Below, one piece after another: positions 3,542 to 52,212 of a stretch of DNA of 64,000 nt. The stretch covers positions 1,798,001-1,862,000 of the forward strand of contig AP026126.1 in NCBI GenBank assembly GCA_030295235.1, read 5' to 3'. Under the pieces are notes generated by a model. That model made no database searches. It was given only the letters and a program-made list of their open reading frames with translations, and was not told the DNA's origin. This DNA is from Fistulifera solaris. Lineage: Eukaryota. How positions within the stretch are numbered: position 1 is the first letter of the stretch; each line of letters begins with the position of its first letter. A program made the translations under genes and the position numbers.

Positions 3542-3616
3542 TTTCGCTACGTTACCGCTAGTTGAGGGATAAATTTGAATAATGTGTTTCTATTGCTCTC
3601 GATCTCTTTTATTATA

Positions 3617-3907
3617 GTCCTTGTTGTCTGTCATTCCTTTTACCAGTAGTATTGGTCGGATCTCTGATCTCTGACTGATATCTCGCGTCTCGCATCTCGC
3701 CCGCTTCTTGACAGGTTGTTAACAATAAAACACGATGCTATCATACTGGTACCTGAACACAATTTAAGAGATACTCCAAAATTTCAAATTGTGTTTTTTA
3801 ATTACTACGTAAAAGTTGCCGCGCACTTAATTAAAGTCATTTGAATTACAGTGCGTCATCAGAACTGTGTCTAAAAGCTACAGACACGTTTTTACCGGTA
3901 CGGTACT
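3617..3907. repeat. Imperfect direct repeat, copy 1 (promoter-region duplication; partner at 8162-8365)
   Basis: Colinear shared blocks: gtccttgtt..tgtcattc, atctcgYccgct, gttaacaataaaacacg, aaatttcaaa, ttacagtgcgtcat, tgtgtctaaa, ccggtac. Confidence 0.8.
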
Positions 3908-4088
3908 CATGTGTACTTCATAGGAACTGTATCAGAACTTGTACCTGGGCCTTGGATGTCGCGTTGCACGAAAAACCCTCACGCAAAACGCGAGGAACAC
4001 ACGAAGCACCAACCTCGTTGATCTCATTTCTTACCCGAAGCACGAGCTCCTCGTTCTTCTATTTCATCATTAGAAAGAAAATCCTTCC

Positions 4089-5870
4089 ATGTCTGATCGA
4101 TTGTTGTCCATACTCATGCGCCTTCTGGCGCGTGATGATGACAGTCTTCGTGACGACGCCGTCTCGGTTCTTGGTGAGATCGCCGACGACTCCATTGCCG
4201 GTCGCGATTCGGTCTTACGGGCGGGTGCCATGCAAGCACTACTCTCACAGTTCAATTACGACTCTACGGTGAGGATGATGCGCAAGGCAACCCTGACTTT
4301 GTCTAGATTCTGCCGTGGGGTGCCCCGCCCGGACTTTGAATTGGTTCGACTTGCAGTGCCAACGTTGGCGGAACTACTGCATTATCCGGACGAAGAAGTC
4401 GTGACGGATGCTTGCTGGGCGATCAACTACATATCGGACAGTCCCGAGGAGTATAAGCAAGCAGTTATTGATGCCGGAATCATTCCCCACCTGCTTGCCC
4501 AACTACGTCGCGACATGTAAGTATTTTCTGGTCGCGCAAGTTCACAATGGTCACCTGTTGCTGTTCTTATCTCACTTTTGCCCCTCTTTAGCAAAGATAT
4601 CCAGACCCCGGCACTTATGGCTATTGGAAGCATTGCTAGCGGTAACCCTTCACAAACACAGTGTGTTATTGACAATGATGCACTCCCTTGTTTATTGGAC
4701 CTTCTCTCAAGTTCGCACGTTGGTATCCGCAAGTACGCATGCTGGGCTATCTCGAACGTCACAGCGGGGAGTGCGGAGCAAATTCAAGCTGTCATCAATT
4801 GCAATATTATCCTCCCTCTGGTACAGCTTCTCAGCAATTTTCGTGTACGAAGACAAGCTGCTTATGCCATCTACAACGCTACTTCTGGAGGCAGTCGGGT
4901 ACAGATCTTGCATCTTGTTGAGCAAGGCTGCATTCGTCCCCTGTGTGATCTATTGACGGTCTTAGACGTAGAGACTGTGACAATTGTCCTCAAGACGTTG
5001 CAAAAACTATTGATGATTGATGATGAACTCTCTCGTCGATTCATTGTCATGCTTATTGAAGGCGCGCGAGGGCATCATAAGATCAAGCAGCTCCGAGAGC
5101 GTCAAATCCACAATATAAACAAAAAAGTCTTTGATATACTCCAAATAATGTATTGCGGAGGAGGAGAACAGGAAGAAGAAATAGAGGTTATCAATGTCGA
5201 TAGTTCATTACATGTACTACGACAAGCTGAGGGACGGGACAACGTTGTCACCCCCACGGACACGATAGAAGCTGTTTCAGGTCCGCTTGCGCTTGTACCC
5301 GATGCTGCAATTTCGGCTAATGTAGATGTGCAAGATTCTTCGGAGAACTTTTTTATGGAAGATTTAAAGTTGGAAGACACGGAGAATATAATACCCGAAG
5401 TTCAAGAAGAGACATTTGAAGGTACGGAAAGTTCGCTTTTTGAGCCCCCCGCGCCAGCTGGGGCTTCGGAGGTGTCCCTAGGTGGGCTTGCAGGACCATC
5501 GATCCCCGTTTTCACTGGCAAAGTCAACTTGTGGACGACGGCCGCAACCGCTTACGTTCGCGACCCAACTAATCCAGACAGAAAAGTGCGAGTCGGATGC
5601 CCGTTGTGTCCGGACTCTACTTACATTAGCTTAGATTTGTACCGTGATTCCTTCAACGAAAACTACGACCCAGATGGAGATGGTAGACTTGTGCAGCAAA
5701 ATGGGATGTACTCACATCGTTTGGATCTCGGCATACCCCTTCGTGCAAATACTTGGGTTTCTGCTGCTGATGTTCAACAAATAAAGAAAAACCTTTGGCG
5801 ACATGTAAATAAATTTGAACAGAAGCATCCTAAATGCGTCAAACCACAAGCATTCTTCTACAATGGATAG
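4089..5870 (+). CDS. Truncated importin-alpha-like ARM-repeat protein with acidic linker and C-terminal Cys/His domain
   Basis: Importin-alpha ARM motifs DEEVVTDACWAINY, TPALMAIGSIASG, IRKYACWAISNVTAG, LVEQGCIRPLCDLL. In-frame intron 4517-4591. No IBB domain. Confidence 0.8.
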
Positions 5871-6099
5871 GGACCTCATTGGATTGTTGCTTGTCAAAAA
5901 CTCGAATCAGAAAACGACCCAATGGCCCTCCACAAAAATGGATAGCATAAACATGTCATTTATTCAGATAATCCCAACTTAGACTTCGTATTGACTTAAT
6001 TGCATCTTCCAATCCAACATCCATGGCGAGGATCACTTGCCGCACCCCAGCGATACGTGGTGGTTGCTTATTGTGTGGATCGCCTATTATGACAATACT

Positions 6100-8135
6100 T
6101 CTTGCCGAGAACTTTCAAACATTAAACGAGAAAACGCAATAGAACAACAACCCTTTGACCAATATACAATTTGAAGTTACCCCTGCGTAAGTCTTTAGTA
6201 TAATGTTTGATCTAGGAACGTTCCAGAAAGTTAGCAAAATGAAGTGCATTTGATGTAATGAAGTTTGACGGACTCGAAACTTAACCAGTAATTTCTCGAG
6301 CCGAAAATCATTACCGGTGACTCCTCTTTGCCATAAATCCGGTTTGGACCTTTCCACGCTTAGCCAACAACGCCTTTAGGCGTTACTTGGCGTGTGATTG
6401 TTGTGTGAACCACGGCTTGCGACCATTCATCTAGCCGAGACGTTTAGACAAGGATGCCGAAAGACGTAACAAAACAGAGAGCGCATTAGATCGACCATTT
6501 TGCTCAACCAATTCCAAATTTGAAACGATCTATGAACAGCTTGTTGGTGAGTTCAAAGCGTAAGAGAGAATGAAGTGAAGGACAACTTATTCGACGATCA
6601 CGACGTAACGGTTTTTGTTCGCGACAGCTTGCCACAGCGTCCTGATGCTCCGTTCTCGCGATGAATCTGGTTTGGACCTTTTCAAGCACACCCGATGATG
6701 TCTTTTAGCGATACTTGGGCGTAGGCTGTTGTGCAGACAGCGGCTTTATGGCAGTGCATACCGCCGAGATCTCGAAAGAGTTGTCGTACAACAAAACCGA
6801 AAGAGAATTAGCATTAGCACAGCGATCTTTTGACAGATCCTTGATCTGGAAGGATTCCTGCACAGTTCCTTAGTTCTATTATCGATCGAAGTTCAAAGGG
6901 TCACCGGAGAATATTCGAAATTGAGTACAAAATATGTGACGATCAGGACACTTACAATCAGTTGCTAGCGACAACTTGCAATTGCATGGGGAAGAGCGAC
7001 AAAAAGCCTTTCGGCGGACGAAAGCAACAACGAAACTTCTTTTCGACTCCGTACGACCCAAAACAATGACACCAGCAATTTGATTCCATCTGAAATTATG
7101 TAGTCATATGTCGTCCAAATTTTCGATCTTTCAAGCGGTGATGCACAAGAACTTACGTCTGGAATGTTCAAGAGAGCAATTGACATGGATCCGACTATGT
7201 GTGTTATTGATTCAGCACAGCCAAATGGGACTGGTGTCTACCGAAGCAATTTCAAAAAATTTTGTGAAACGTCTCGTTCTCATTACGATTTCATAAGTTC
7301 CGACACTAAGTCAGCTCCTCCTAACAACAAGTCGTCAGATGATTCAGGAAGCGGAACTATCAGCACAAACGATCACCTCCATCGAAATTTCCTGGTCCTG
7401 CGACAGCACCTACTTTAAAGAAACCCGGGACCGGTTGTGTTTTTGAGATACGAGAAAAACAAAAACAAAGCAATACAAGAGACACCAGAGGAGCCGAGGG
7501 AGGAGCGTTAAGTCACGGAAGCGGAGAAACAAAAAGCCAAGTATGCGGCCAAGATAATGTATGCAGAGGCTTGGAAAGATGGTGATCCTTACGAAGTCTT
7601 GAACATTCCGATGGATCGCTTGACTTTGAAAGCGCTGATAGAAATGGCTGAAAGCAGCAAGAAGTGTGAATATGAATCGTGGCAAGAGGAAGCGAACAAT
7701 TTCGAATATGTTGAAGATGACGACAACGACGGCGACGGCGAAATGGTGTCGTCTGATATTTCTTTGAGGAAGAGACAGATCCTGTGATTGGTGAAACTAT
7801 TGACGATAAGGAGAGTAACGAAAATGGGACAGCCAGCACATCAAATACAAAGCGATCATACAATTACCAAGTCAAGACGGTAGAAGTGCCCAATTCACAT
7901 GTCGTCGTCCCCAAAAATCAGATCACGAGAATTTCAAACGAGGCCCGAGCGTGGAGAAAACTGCTTGCTTGAATGGAAAAAGCGGGAAAATATGAACCGG
8001 CTAAACTCGCGAAGCGATTATATGCAGCAGCGCTCATTCAAGCCCCTCGTCTCTCAATTAATGTTGCCGAGAGCAAATTTTTCCCATGGTTATTGCCGGA
8101 TTTTTGACGGACTTGGGACTCAGCTACGACTCTGA
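6100..8135 (+). pseudogene. Possible decayed gene or transposon relic (identity unknown)
   Basis: About 2 kb without a long ORF in an otherwise gene-dense region. Protein-like fragments on + (7164-7418, 7557-7787, 7784-7972) and a stop-interrupted frame at ~6120-6535. Confidence 0.3.
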
Positions 8136-8161
8136 GTCACTAGCTAGCGGGCAGCACGTTC

Positions 8162-14569: not shown

Positions 14570-14809
14570 TACTTCCGAATTCTGTTATTAACACACAATA
14601 ATTCCACTTTATTCAAGACAACATAAACATATTTAACAAGGACGCCGAATCAGGAAATCAATTGTACCATAAGTTAGATTCACAGGAAGATGACAAGAGC
14701 AAAACCAACTCTGAAAGCAGCGCGGCTACTACTGTACAGACTTTCGAAGTACACCGATATCCTCTATCTATTTTCAAACTACTAAAAACTAGCCGATTTC
14801 GAATCGAGT

Positions 14810-15152
14810 TTAGAAAAGACCGAACAACTTTTTCTTGGGGGCTTCTACCTTGGCGGCCGCTTTCACTGGGGCTTTCTTGGCGACGGGTGCCTTCTTGGCA
14901 GCAGGGGGCCTTGGCAGCGGCCTTGACAGGTGTCTTCTTGGCAGCGACAGCCTTGACAGGCGTTTTCTTCTTGGGCTCTTCGACGTACATTGTTTCGTTC
15001 TCGAACTCCCATGACTGTTTTCCTCCTCGGCTGTAGGCGTTGTTCAATCCGAACAAAGAAGTGCTTGCTCGCGATTGAGAGGAGGGTGCGAAAGCCATGC
15101 AGGCAGTGATCGCAACGAGAAGAAGGAGAGTGGAAAGGATAGACTTGGCCAT
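14810..15152 (-). CDS. Small plastid-targeted Lys/Ala/Pro-rich protein
   Basis: Signal peptide with ACMA|FAP cleavage motif, then repeats KKTPVKA/KKAPV. Removing one G at 14904-14908 gives the C-terminus KKKLFGLF*. Confidence 0.75.
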
Positions 15153-15644
15153 TTTAAAATTGTTGAATAGATTGCTTTTGTTGTGAAAAACAAGATTGAG
15201 AAGCGAATGTGTGGAGAAAACGATCGTCAAACGGCGATGTAACGAGTGACGCAATACTTTGTGACGCAATCGATACGTTGGATTTCTGAACACACGGGAA
15301 GCTCGCAACGAGCCACGAGCCAGGAGCCACCAAATACGAACACCCCTCTCTCCCCGCTTTCCCACTTTCCTCTCGCACCTCGCACCTCGCACCCCATCAC
15401 AAAGATCGGCATTTGATGGGTCGAACAAAGGAAAATGTCCGCTGACTCACTCGACAGACTCGCCCGGCGCACCGGGAAAATGACGACGTCATACGTCATC
15501 ATCGCACGGACCACGCACGTACGAAAACAAAGCCGACCTCTACTGTTCCTCATTATCGTTGATTAGTATCTCAGGGCAAAAGCACCCAAATATCATTATT
15601 AATAAGTAATATCACCAACATGTCTCGTTGTTTGGACATGAAAC

Positions 15645-16341
15645 GTAAAAAACGAAAGATGCAACGCTACAAATGTCCACGTAGATTTTACGTAGTTCTC
15701 GTATAAGGAAATTATTTATCGACAGAGGCGAACCCGGATATTCTGCAATTTCGAAGACTCCATTTTTCCGGTTCATTGTGCTCAAATGGCATCATCGCTT
15801 TCACAAACCTGCATGCTGCATGTCATGCATTTATTGACGATACCATAATAAATTGAAATTCGGAGAAAAACGATAGATACAACGCTACCAAATGTCTACG
15901 TAGATTATACGTAGCTCTCGTATAAGGAAATTATTTATTGACAGAGGCGAACCCGGATATTCTGCAATTTCGAAGACTCCTCCACTTTTCCGGTTGATTG
16001 TGCTCAAATGGCATCATCGCTTTCACAAACCTGCATGCTGCATGTCATGCATTTATTGACGATACCATAATAAATTGAAATTCGGAGAAAAACGATAGAT
16101 ACAAGGCTACCAAATGTCTACGTAGATTATACGTAGCTCTCGTATAAGGAAATTATTTATCGACAGAGGTGAAACCCGGATATTCCGCAATTTCGAAGAC
16201 TCCTCCACTTTTCCGGTTGATTGTGCTCAAATGGCATCATCGCTTTCACAAACCTGCATGCTGCGTGTCATTCATTTATTGGCGATACCAAAATAAATTG
16301 GAATACTGAAAAAACGAAAAATGCAACGCTGCCAAATGTCT
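15645..16341. repeat. Tandem repeat (satellite-like), ~220-bp unit, three full copies plus a truncated fourth
   Basis: tataaggaaattattta recurs at 15702, 15921 and 16143; units are near-identical by eye. Confidence 0.97.
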
Positions 16342-16611
16342 AGTACCAGTAGCTCAAGGAAAAATCCGGCTGTGTCGCTGTGTCCGTGTCCGTGTGTATG
16401 TCACGTAACGTAACGCTGGTCCTGGGTGTCTGAATCACGGGTGTGACGCTATCTCCGGGGATCGAGCCCCCGCTTGCGGGGAAACGACGTTAAAATCTGC
16501 CTCGCCGTAGGCGCTACATAGAATTTTGTACTGGAGGCAGATTTTAACGCCCTTTCCAAGGGCGAGAACGAAAAAAGCTATCCGCAGGGACTAGACGCCG
16601 AAGGCGGCTAG
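16339..16611 (+). mobile_element. Candidate non-autonomous Helitron-like, hairpin-rich element
   Basis: Begins TC where the satellite breaks off. Contains a gtgtcc microrepeat, a perfect 16-bp inverted repeat (16488-16503/16534-16549) and several GC hairpins. Ends cgccgaaggcg-g-CTAG followed by T. Confidence 0.5.
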
Positions 16612-17159
16612 TAAAAATAAAACAATAAAACAGCAAAAAAGGGCGGCGCCAAAGATAAGTCGTGGGTACCGGATTCCATTTGTATCGGCTATCATGTACA
16701 TAGGAATGTCGTAGCGTGCACCTTTCTCGCATCTCGCATCGCCTTGCTCTCACGCACACCATGCGCACTACATCATTATTTGCAGCAACTAAAAAGAATA
16801 CCTTCTTTTCATTCATTACGAACTCATTAAAAGACACTATCACCCCTTTAAGTTGAAGTTCTCGTCTCAATGCAATGTTTTGTGGAAAGTGGGATCTTCC
16901 TCAAGGAAATGATCTGTGATCTTCCTAACCGTGACGACGACCTCCTGCGATTCCAGTGCAAGGCGTTTGCTTCGGAGAGCCATGTTCCTCTTACGTCTTA
17001 CGTAGTATTCGTTTGCAGCAGTCAGCAAACATAACCGCGCATTTCTCATTGCTGTGAAGCAAGATTTTATCCTTCATTTGCTTCGTTTCTACAAAGCTAC
17101 AGCTCTCCTTTTCGAACTCCTCTTTGTAGCTATTTCGCACAAACAGAAGCTCAGTCAAA

Positions 17160-18729
17160 ATGTCGCGAAGGAGGGATCCTTATTTACAACTCGTTCGACG
17201 GGACCGGATGACACCACGGCAACAGGCTCTTGTACCCGCACATTTGCCGAGATCCTTGACCTTGTATGAGTTCCGACAAGAGCCGACACGTTTAGACGAC
17301 ATTGACTGGCAGGAATACGGTTCGATAGCAATCTGGCGTAGCAACGGGTCCGTCATTTTTATTAAAGATCGATGCTTCCAACGGCGACGCCATGTGGTTT
17401 TTTTTATTTAGCGATCGTCTGGGCGGCACGATTTACGGTGAAACGGATGCCGCGATTGCCGAAACGGCAACATTCTTCTTGTCCCTTCAGCATCCCGAAC
17501 ATTGGGGCGAAAATCACCTTCTAATTCGCTCAGCAATTCTTATTGGAATTCGTGCATTCGATTTTGCCGCACTGTTACCCGCGCAGCTCGCACAGATTTT
17601 AGACTCTACGCGTTCTATTACTTTTTCATCAGGGTCCTTTACGCCCGAACAGGCGGTCATTCTAGCAACGCGACCTTATACCCTAAACATAGGGTTGGGT
17701 GAGAGATTTGTTGACCAGGGAACCGCATTTGTGCATGCGCTGCAAATACGCGAATCGTCCTTCGGTTTCCTCAAAATAATCGGTCAAAGGAACGGGGGAC
17801 CTTTTAGTGTTGAGAATTTGCAGCTACTATGTCAACTAAATTTCATCTTGGAGGCACCTTCGGTGCCACATCGATGACGAGGAATGTGCTCTTCTTCCGT
17901 TTTCCGCAAAGGTGAATAAACTGCACTGTCAGATGAGTGCAAAATACGTTCGGCCGGATGATCTTGCTTCCATCGATATTGTAGCGAACGACTTTACTCT
18001 CACATTGTTCTTGGATGGTAATCACGATCATTGGGACACGCTTCTCATTGCGGTCCTTCATCGAGTAGCTGAGCTGGGTCACTTTGAACGATTATGCTTC
18101 TCTGTCTTTTACAACGCTTTTTCAAGATCACTGCAGTTTTACAGAGTGGCTCGAGTTGTTGATGCACTGATTCGTGCTATCCATGCGAATCCCAATCTAG
18201 CATGTTTGGATTTGAGTAGCGATAAACAGTCCGTACGTTGGTCTCATTATTTCCAACCTCTTTTCCAGTCAATGGAAGAACACCCCGGACTGCGTTTTTT
18301 TGTAGTGCAAAGCTACATGCTTCGGGATGAAGAGATCAATGGTGATCATGAGACTCTTTTTCAGTTCAACTTTTCCTGGTTGCAACAGCTCCTCTCAAGG
18401 AATCGACGCTTCGCGGTCGTTGATAGTTCGGGTCAAAAATGTTCGAATGGACCCGTTATCGACAGAATGTATCTACTCAACCGCTTCTATCTGGGTTCGG
18501 AAAGTCTTTTGCAGGAATTTACGGCATCACGGCCGGCGTTGGTGTCTTTAGCGTTGGTCGACCAAGCTTCAAACAACGCTCAGTACATTGCATTGTTACT
18601 GTCGCATCACACCGACGTGCTGTGCGAGTTGCTCAGGATTTCGATGTGCAATCCGTATCGGGAGGTGAGCCGTCGTCGGGTACGCTGCGTCCAAACGCTT
18701 TGAAACGCAAAGCAACCAGTCACTCGTGA
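17160..18729 (+). CDS. Hypothetical protein, possibly RNI/LRR-like, of a lineage-expanded diatom family (frameshifted, may be a pseudogene)
   Basis: ORFs 17160-17411, 17392-17877 and 17912-18703 are consecutive. LRR-like phrases ALIRAIHANPNLACLDL and MEEHPGLR, and YLLNRF. Frameshifts at T8 17398-17405 and ~17850. Confidence 0.6.
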
Positions 18730-18849
18730 TCTGCTGCAAAGAAATCAGCTTGCAGCTTCGTATCCAAACTAGTAAAAATATTGTAATTAACATTTTGGTT
18801 TTATTTTCTAGTAATAATAATAATAACTTTGATATTTTATTTCAAGTCC

Positions 18850-18950
18850 TATCCACGTTTTAGGTTCTTTCTCTCACGACATAAGTTACTCGATATAAGC
18901 CACTCATTCAGAATTATGCTCAAATGACATCATCGCTTTCACAAACATGA
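18850..18950. repeat. Detached, degenerate fragment of the ~220-bp satellite unit
   Basis: tgctcaaatgacatcatcgctttcacaaac (18917-18946) matches the unit at 29 of 30 nt. Confidence 0.8.
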
Positions 18951-19084
18951 ATTAAAGAGTGTAAAGAGGACCTATGTAATGTCCAATGCTTCAAAAATAA
19001 TGTTGGACATAAGGGGATACCTAGAAGTCCGATATGTTTAAGATTGCTTTTCCCTGACTTGCTAACGCGGTGATATGATTTTTT

Positions 19085-20278
19085 CTACTTCTTCGACAGA
19101 TGATAGGCTCCGAACATATCTTTGTCTTCATCGGTGTCCTGGAGACGCCGATCAACTTCCAGGAACGGAGGAAGATCAACTTCAGGCTCCGCTTTTCCCG
19201 AAGCTTCCACCTGGGCGTGTAAGATACACAGCCCTTCCTTGGGTGACTGAAAGATATGAACGACAAAGCTTTGCTTGTTGTACAAAAAGCTTATACGTCG
19301 CTGTTGTACAACATGACGACTCGTGTCGCGAGTTGCCGATGTGGACATGTACTCTCGTTCAGATATTATGCGCTTTTGCTCGATCAATTCTCCGTCCTCG
19401 GTCCATTGCGCCAATGTAGATTGATACACACTACCGAGACGTCGACCGTCGGGATCAATATTAGTTCTTCGACGAATGAAGCTGTAGCTGCTTTTATCGT
19501 CGTGAATATGCTTCAGATAGATCTTTTCCACTTCAAATTCTTTGTATGCGATTTCAGGAGGAAACTTCGAGAGATCAGGCTTGCTTTTCAGCAAGAATTT
19601 CGCAGATCGACGCTTCAAGTTGGATGGGAGGCCTACAATCTTGCTCAATGTGTCTACCAAGCGTGACATTTTCCCCTCAAAATCAGTAGAATTGTCGATG
19701 AAGTAAAAGTGCGGATGTCCTACCCATGCATTTTGTGTTTTTTGATCTACTTCACGTGCTTCTTCCTTCGTTTCTGTGCGAACTTTGTTGTTTTCAAGTG
19801 TATAAAAGGGCTCCGCACCGTCTGCAGCTGTTATAAGATGGAAAATAGCGTCGTATCGATTGTCACGAATCTGCACAATGTGGGTGTCCATCTCGCTCAG
19901 CAAGTCTGAAAACTCCTTCTGCGGCATGTACACACTCCCATCCATCGTCCCACGATCACAGAGCATGACTCCAGGTTTACCTCTTGCTTTTAATACACGA
20001 TGAATACCATCTTCTAGTGCCATTTGAACTTCCAAAACGGTTCGCTGAATCACTTTGGGCATACCCTGTGTCGAAAAGAAATCAACATTCATGCCGTTGG
20101 AAGACAGCGTCGTATAAGCCTCCGGACATGTGATGCACTCGAACCCTCGTTCACGCAAGTAAGAGAAGACTCGCGCGAGTGCAGTCGTCTTTCCACCGCA
20201 GGGACCACCCGTAAAGACAAATCGGAAAATGGGCGGGCCGTCCGTGGCATTGAGGTTTCGCTCCGCTTCGGTTGACAT
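19085..20278 (-). CDS. TTD14-like protein (AAA_28/NadR-type P-loop plus CYTH-like domain)
   Basis: VFTGGPCGGKTT Walker A, CDRG, RYDAIFHL.TAADGAE, AWVGHP; C-terminal EVEKIYL...IRRR. Confidence 0.85.
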   Translation of the reverse strand: MSTEAERNLNATDGPPIFRFVFTGGPCGGKTTALARVFSYLRERGFECITCPEAYTTLSSNGMNVDFFSTQGMPKVIQRTVLEVQMALEDGIHRVLKARGKPGVMLCDRGTMDGSVYMPQKEFSDLLSEMDTHIVQIRDNRYDAIFHLITAADGAEPFYTLENNKVRTETKEEAREVDQKTQNAWVGHPHFYFIDNSTDFEGKMSRLVDTLSKIVGLPSNLKRRSAKFLLKSKPDLSKFPPEIAYKEFEVEKIYLKHIHDDKSSYSFIRRRTNIDPDGRRLGSVYQSTLAQWTEDGELIEQKRIISEREYMSTSATRDTSRHVVQQRRISFLYNKQSFVVHIFQSPKEGLCILHAQVEASGKAEPEVDLPPFLEVDRRLQDTDEDKDMFGAYHLSKK

Positions 20279-51980: not shown

Positions 51981-52212
51981 TTTTCACGTCTCGAGAAAAT
52001 GTGGCAGTGTGCTGTTTTCACGTCCCCAGAAAATGTGGGCATGTGGCTTTTCACGTGCCCAGAAAATGTGAGCATGTGGCTTTTCACGTGCCCAGAAAAT
52101 GTGGGCATGTGGCTTTTCACGTACCCAGAAAATGTGAGCATGTGGCTTTTCACGTCCCCAGAAAATGTGGGTAAGTGATGTTTTCACTTGCACAAAAAGT
52201 CTGGGAGTGTGG
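51981..52212. repeat. 33-bp minisatellite, five conserved plus two degenerate copies
   Basis: ttttcacgtNcccagaaaatgtgRgcatgtggc at 52015, 52048, 52081, 52114 and 52147; degenerate copies at 51981 and 52181. Confidence 0.97.

Follow-up and report, generated by a model that had tools for sequence, protein, structure and literature searches.

A 5′-truncated Helitron carrying a nested MITE adjoins a member of a large leucine-rich-repeat gene family in the diatom Fistulifera solaris

The closest described systems for the locus presented here are the canonical Helitrons, HLE1/Helitron1 and Helraiser/Helibat1, and the gene-capturing Helitrons of maize and bat. HLE1 and Helitron are used as defined in the cited sections of PMC4778049 and PMC11417382. 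Read-through transduction has been shown experimentally for Helraiser, and the read-through model requires the 5′ end of the element and yields a new copy elsewhere (cited sections of PMC4778049). A sequence-only reading of 64,000 nucleotides of Fistulifera solaris DNA (from here on referred to as the window; contig AP026126.1, positions 1,798,001 to 1,862,000) had proposed such an event, namely a gene-carrying Helitron-like unit at 16339-18772 inserted into a satellite array, with rolling-circle transduction spreading the gene family. The motifs behind this proposal are present at their positions, but they are not the two ends of a single element. The Helitron 3′ end at 16611 stands, whereas the gene-carrying unit does not, and the region is very probably a pile of independent repeats around a resident gene that is not Helitron cargo. 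The locus pairs a truncated Helitron of an ordinary kind, carrying a nested MITE, with an equally ordinary member of a large leucine-rich-repeat (LRR) gene family.

F. solaris is an allopolyploid with H and L subgenomes (cited sections of PMC5935921). The genome searched is allodiploid and comprises 51.7 Mb in 62 contigs, the window lying on contig C6. C5:1.90-1.93 Mb is colinear with the window over about 30 kb at 88-95% identity and carries, in order, the upstream gene, about 1.1 satellite units, the LRR gene, the CTAG equivalent to 18769, an interspersed-repeat remnant, a satellite fragment and the downstream gene. Homology between copies was expected to stop at the second CTAG; the only close copy, C5, reads through 18772 and remains homologous for 7 kb. 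The Helitron is missing from the homoeologous stretch, but instead of an empty site for the whole unit, C5 keeps the gene and its 3′ flank. C5 also lacks 15523-15703 and most of a single-copy spacer at 16612-16764 (no strand assigned) and is thus not a clean empty site for the Helitron. Among 196 loci compared, the flank following the Helitron and the 18700-18800 tail match only C6 and C5, so that the outer ends of the proposed unit, predicted to recur in the genome, are single-copy apart from the homoeolog. Three stretches are covered by short-read contigs from run X1, the left Helitron junction (16235-16462) and 18463-18966 with 0 differences each and the right Helitron junction (16480-16800) with 0 other letters and 2 gaps, which argues that none of these is an assembly artefact. 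Two features of run X3, a 15740-to-19083 joint with only 27 letters on its short side and undefined intervening sequence, and almost no coverage at 16640-16773, are too weak to use.

Several further features surround the locus. The satellite array is preceded by a 125-nt A/T-rich stretch (15523-15647) that is not found in C5 and is single-copy among the loci compared. The upstream gene (14658-15152, minus strand) codes for a small protein with Lys/Ala/Pro repeats, a leader at the N terminus and no Pfam match; its repeat is 23 nt longer in C5, so the window frame may be shifted there. The downstream gene (19085-20278, minus strand) encodes a conserved NTPase (AAA_28), for which 523 homologs reach E ≤ 1e-60, and a metagenome scan with this gene found no relative among 63 pattern matches. 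About 4.5 kb of the window (3571-8157), which contains an armadillo-repeat, importin-alpha-like frame as judged by eye, has no colinear match in the C5 stretch compared. A 33-nt tandem repeat at 51981-52171 (5.8 copies) resembles repeats around Helitron loci L100 and L153.

The Helitron copy (16369-16611, plus strand) is a 5′-truncated, non-autonomous element of the HLE1 type, ending in a hairpin and CTAG|T at 16591-16612. This first hairpin, already recognized from the sequence as a candidate terminator at 16611, is a real one: the 22-nt 3′ end of the family has 38 exact copies in the genome and 0 in a reversed control. At least 84 matches to the family were found (40 of 257 candidates scored), together with 48 exact matches to its 5′ end. 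The 5′ motif is present in 29/30 Helitron loci, 138-1040 nt from the 3′ end, and the window copy is the only one of the 30 that lacks it. At L103 and L153, local tandem repeats offer paralogous empty sites, which place insertion at A|T without target duplication. T follows CTAG in 30/30 loci, T being part of the search pattern, A is found at +9 after CTAG in 30/30 insertions and at +6 in 26/30, and the target is A/T-rich for 11 nt (L090-L119). With T at +1 and A at +9, the right junction of the window copy carries the family target signature. The nearest relatives of this copy are 95.5% and 92.6% identical to it. This divergence of 4.5-7% is comparable to the roughly 5% by which the nearest H and L flanks differ, and C5 is not a clean empty site; the insertion may therefore date back to the subgenome split or before it, with later loss from C5. 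Elsewhere, four C5 insertions are absent from their C6 counterparts, in intergenic DNA too rearranged for reading junctions, and a relic at C6:1.235 Mb is likewise missing from its C5 site, itself rearranged. A C1 locus compared with a C2 Helitron relic proved not to be its homoeologous partner.

Fourteen family 5′ ends, mostly picked because they had no exact 3′ match, were followed and gave members of 0.5-2.2 kb. The longer members contain RepHel N- and C-terminal pieces that are 38-50% identical to proteins with PF14214 and PF05970, and the end of a 389-aa frame in one of them matches four RepHel proteins at 35-50%. Internally deleted RepHel Helitrons with family ends were seen at L144 (C13:591.3-593.1 kb), L155 (C1:1207.4-1209.4 kb), L149, L143, L148 and L164. 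The absence of RepHel from the region itself, stated in the sequence-only reading, is confirmed. The search it suggested for RepHel with matching termini did recover fragments, L144 and L155 each combining the family 5′ start and hairpin-CTAG end with both RepHel pieces, but no intact RepHel in the assembly: a full RepHel query matched at residues 8-240 and 1330-1484 only (8 matches). A PF05970 profile search of the genome confirmed 0/4 candidates, and a PF14214 profile gave 0 candidates, its control also matching nowhere. The family is a canonical, high-copy HLE1 family derived from RepHel elements. No published description of it was found among the Fistulifera and diatom Helitron papers listed, at the level of titles and abstract openings; supplements or repeat libraries could list it. 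L140 (C7:1135.0-1137.9 kb) is a 2.8-kb composite in which Helitron ends and long GT runs surround about 1.4 kb of foreign sequence, possibly a capture or a nested insertion. From its motifs, we take the foreign sequence to resemble a non-LTR retroelement fragment.

Inside the window Helitron lies a 76-nt MITE (16481-16556, no strand assigned) with 24-nt inverted repeats, and other Helitron copies join directly across its position. Rfam yielded just two hairpin matches, both sub-threshold and both on the MITE. The MITE family has 188 candidates, of which the top 40 were scored. Identical 3-bp flanks occur at 10 of 20 MITE loci (6 CAG, 2 CTG and 2 CGG, the first 8 being CWG), and this CNG target duplication, mostly CWG, is not intact around the window copy, whose flanks are damaged. 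MITEs of this family were also seen at or inside other Helitron copies (L020, L083 and L145), beside the 5′ end in two and within one. NuwaI MITEs of the PHIS superfamily likewise have a CWG target duplication and, in the cited sections of PMC4482050, are described from animals only. The window family is also short with long terminal inverted repeats and CWG flanks, but unlike NuwaI it has CGG flanks as well.

The left side of the locus consists of satellite. As previously noted, an array of about 220-bp units ends near 16341; TRF places it at 15648-16342 (plus strand) with a period of 222 nt and 3.1 copies, and C5 has about 1.1 units at this position, 81-86% identical. The array is a local variant of a dispersed satellite family with at least 130 matches (40 of 198 candidates scored). 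The TC taken as the start of the insert is present at 16339 and preceded by G, but it belongs to the satellite, the same TCTA being found in the two preceding units. Between array and Helitron is a 26-nt stub (16343-16368, plus strand) that gives a gapped alignment to the satellite core and is probably decayed satellite rather than a Helitron 5′ end. Among 196 loci compared, 16339-16368 matches the window's own loci only, so that the left boundary of the proposed gene-carrying Helitron shows a single-copy stub and not the family 5′ terminus. Satellite does reappear downstream, and the reported 29/30 match at 18917-18946 falls inside a 36/40 match at 18913-18952 (plus strand), but the array does not resume at 18773. 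The match is a 40-nt fragment starting 140 nt farther on, and it is out of register, corresponding to unit positions 128-167 where about 24 would be needed. It is present in both subgenomes and fits the local array better (36/40) than nine other satellite loci (21-29/40), so some old event did part the satellite pieces on either side of the gene. The fragment abuts a different repeat, the 3′ remnant of a SINE/LINE-like interspersed element (18812-18912, minus strand; TTA-type tail), which is also found in C5 and has 14 further matches with variable 5′ truncation and an A/T-rich tail. In one of the related loci L023-L035 (L030), a Helitron sits exactly at the repeat tail, and four loci related to this repeat have tandem repeats of about 290 nt upstream.

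The second hairpin (18733-18772, plus strand) had been read as the terminator of the unit. Its 7-bp arms (18733-18739 and 18750-18756) do stand 12 nt before CTAG|T at 18769-18772, but it is not a shared terminator, the segment having no other genomic copy apart from C5. There, 44 extra nucleotides lie between stem and CTAG, leaving a 5-bp stem 58 nt away, and in the window the indel junction supplies two of the seven stem pairs. Position +9 after 18772 is T, unlike the A found in 30/30 family ends. Perfect stems of at least 7 bp precede 1/48 CTAGT, 6/355 CTRRT and 18/1288 CTRR sites in the window, a rate of about 1.5-2% per site that makes such stems uncommon, although this site was chosen after the fact. 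The two motifs agree in the 12 nt that begin with CTAG at 16608 and at 18769. The second hairpin with its CTAG is best regarded as a chance look-alike at an indel junction and not a family terminus. The CTAG at 18808 was also considered as a terminus and rejected: its target pattern fits, but no family sequence lies upstream.

The gene between the two hairpins had been given as intronless at 17160-18729. Its ATG at 17160 stands and no intron is needed, but the stop is at 18703 and the frame is broken in the window. The database protein FisN_4Lh191 (17160-18703, plus strand; 513 aa) matches the window at 100% in three pieces. Its C5 homoeolog FisN_4Hh191, as the paired H/L database names indicate, has an open frame of 533 aa and stops at a position equivalent to 18729. 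An extra base near 17853 is missing from all X1 depth there, and the T run near 17396 contains a one-base shift that the database protein lacks; both shifts look like assembly errors judging from these comparisons. The gene was also considered as a pseudogene, which is contradicted for one shift by the X1 read contigs and for the other by the database protein. The C5 protein is predicted to fold into an RNI-like LRR solenoid (pLDDT 83), for which Foldseek returned NLRP7, COI1, SKP2 and NLRC4 (E about 1e-4, probability 1.0), and a Pfam search of the LRR protein gave no match above cut-off. The predicted model shares the repeating beta-alpha solenoid of RNI-like LRR proteins such as NLRP7/NLRC4, COI1/TIR1 and SKP2, but identities are only 10-16% and TM-scores 0.23-0.38, and, unlike in these proteins, no NACHT or F-box partner domain was detected.

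All named relatives of the LRR protein are Fistulifera proteins. At least 149 family matches came from scoring 148 of 406 candidates, and tandem clusters on C17, C18, C30 and C42 account for many of the paralogs. The nearest non-homoeologous paralogs among the scored candidates have 46-48% protein identity. A quick IQ-TREE tree of C-terminal regions with 34 rows (15 database proteins and 19 genome loci; L050, L052, L056 and L060 omitted) groups the H/L pair with an outside protein, P0003 (52%), as its sister at SH-aLRT 99. None of these is close enough to be a donor as recent as the Helitron copy. Twenty-three paralog loci were inspected, with an upstream reach of about 0.7 kb from the start, and none has a match to the Helitron, to the 5′ flank or to the 18700-18800 tail. 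Paralogs were expected to share both ends of the unit if transduction had spread them; with 0/23 doing so and the gene syntenic in both subgenomes, the proposed rolling-circle spread finds no support. The 3′ flanks of the paralogs, two pairs excepted, resemble neither the window nor one another. Hairpins with 6-bp stems and CTRR occur near 7/23 paralog 3′ ends, in unrelated places, close to the background of 61/1288 sites in the window. Conversely, LRR family sequence is absent from the 14 stretches at Helitron family 5′ ends. Helitron, satellite and LRR genes do meet again on C7 (L196; 900.5-908.5 kb), where the stretch between two tandem LRR paralogs contains an intact Helitron together with a satellite fragment and a short-period repeat. 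This Helitron ends about 63 nt ahead of the likely start codon of an LRR paralog; the locus shares no flank or tail with the window, and no CTAG|T occurs for about 2.2 kb past its gene. A third LRR family gene adjoins a satellite array on C17. We interpret this co-occurrence as repeats accumulating around dispensable genes.

The repeats are unevenly distributed over the genome. The subterminal Helitron motif has 71 matches: within C1-C26, odd contigs carry 54 and even contigs 5, and the other 12 fall on later contigs. The MITE and the satellite (top 40 candidates each) are skewed in the same way. All three were seen mostly on odd contigs up to C27 and then on C30, C32, C34, C36, C38, C40 and C42. 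The odd/even pairing is drawn from the alignment of C5 (H) with C6 (L) alone; taken with it, the clustering of intact Helitron copies on odd contigs suggests a one-parent transposon burst, in the H parent. The four other even-contig Helitron copies are eroded and 80-86% identical to an intact copy.

In the reading we favor, the LRR gene, the upstream satellite unit and the downstream satellite fragment were already in place in the common ancestor of the subgenomes, both of which retain them. A short non-autonomous Helitron would then have inserted beside the satellite by rolling-circle transposition, presumably mobilized in trans by a RepHel element now seen just as deletion derivatives. The copy, which today lacks its 5′ end and contains the MITE, would subsequently have been truncated and hit in turn. 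Following the Helraiser model, the loss of the 5′ end should have cost it both transposition and read-through, leaving it no substrate for moving. The second hairpin may have arisen through the 44-nt indel seen beside an ordinary CTAG, and the gene family would have grown mainly through old tandem and dispersed duplication.

Against this, a recent unit at 16339-18772, with Helitron transduction driving the spread of the gene family, is barely credible. It can draw on a first terminator that is a real Helitron end, on motifs that do exist, including a second stem found at only 1/48 CTAGT sites, and on the identical 12 nt after both CTAGs, but its TC is satellite sequence, homoeologous homology passes through 18772, its ends recur at 0/23 paralogs and the 14 stretches at family 5′ ends are free of the gene family. 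The capture could also be placed before the subgenome split. Helitron read-through, or another element, would then have put the LRR gene into the array, the satellite pieces and a relic terminator being the footprint left after the ends eroded and the donor was lost; this is very unlikely, and equally so as the kind of event that seeded the dispersed family. Local-type satellite does flank the gene on both sides in both subgenomes, the Helitron may have inserted before the split, C7 too combines a Helitron, satellite and an LRR gene, and read-through transduction is an experimentally shown process (cited sections of PMC4778049). However, the window Helitron has no 5′ terminus, and family sequence is missing from the second terminator, which C5 does not preserve and which departs from the +9 A signature. 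The satellite is out of register, no donor exceeds 48% protein identity among the 148 of 406 candidates scored, and the C7 locus offers neither a common flank or tail nor a CTAG|T within about 2.2 kb beyond its gene. Neither the 5′ end nor the transduced new copy that the read-through model requires is seen for the window gene.

A different history would have the Helitron and MITE copied in from the repeat-rich subgenome after hybridization, by ectopic repair or recombination through satellite homology. The concentration of the Helitron, MITE and satellite families on the other contig set fits such copying, as does a left junction made of decayed satellite core without an A|TC end. We nevertheless consider it unlikely: the right junction has the family target signature, the erosion of the four other even-contig copies fits old insertions, and no donor with a MITE at the same position was seen. 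Independent accumulation of repeats around a resident gene is thus the reading retained here.

No support is left for the idea that rolling-circle transduction spread a diatom-specific, receptor-like gene family. What remains is modest but usable, namely a well-defined diatom Helitron family with RepHel-derived members. According to the cited sections of PMC5935921, a long-read assembly is required to assign subgenomes from transposon relics, and that study turned to GC content and codon usage instead. The Helitron, MITE and satellite could serve as subgenome markers and date the one-parent burst.

Compared with the gene-capturing Helitrons of maize and bat, the locus likewise has a real terminator upstream of a same-strand gene, but it has no transduced copy and no common second terminus, and its gene keeps the same place in both subgenomes. 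In contrast to canonical Helitrons, the window copy is without a 5′ end, and the searches recovered no intact RepHel from the assembly. The family as a whole resembles HLE1/Helitron1 and Helraiser/Helibat1 in running from 5′-TC to hairpin-CTAG-3′ and inserting at A|T without duplication, and it is set apart from them by an extended A/T target preference (A at +9, 30/30) and by two stacked 3′ hairpins, the last of which contains the terminal CTAG.
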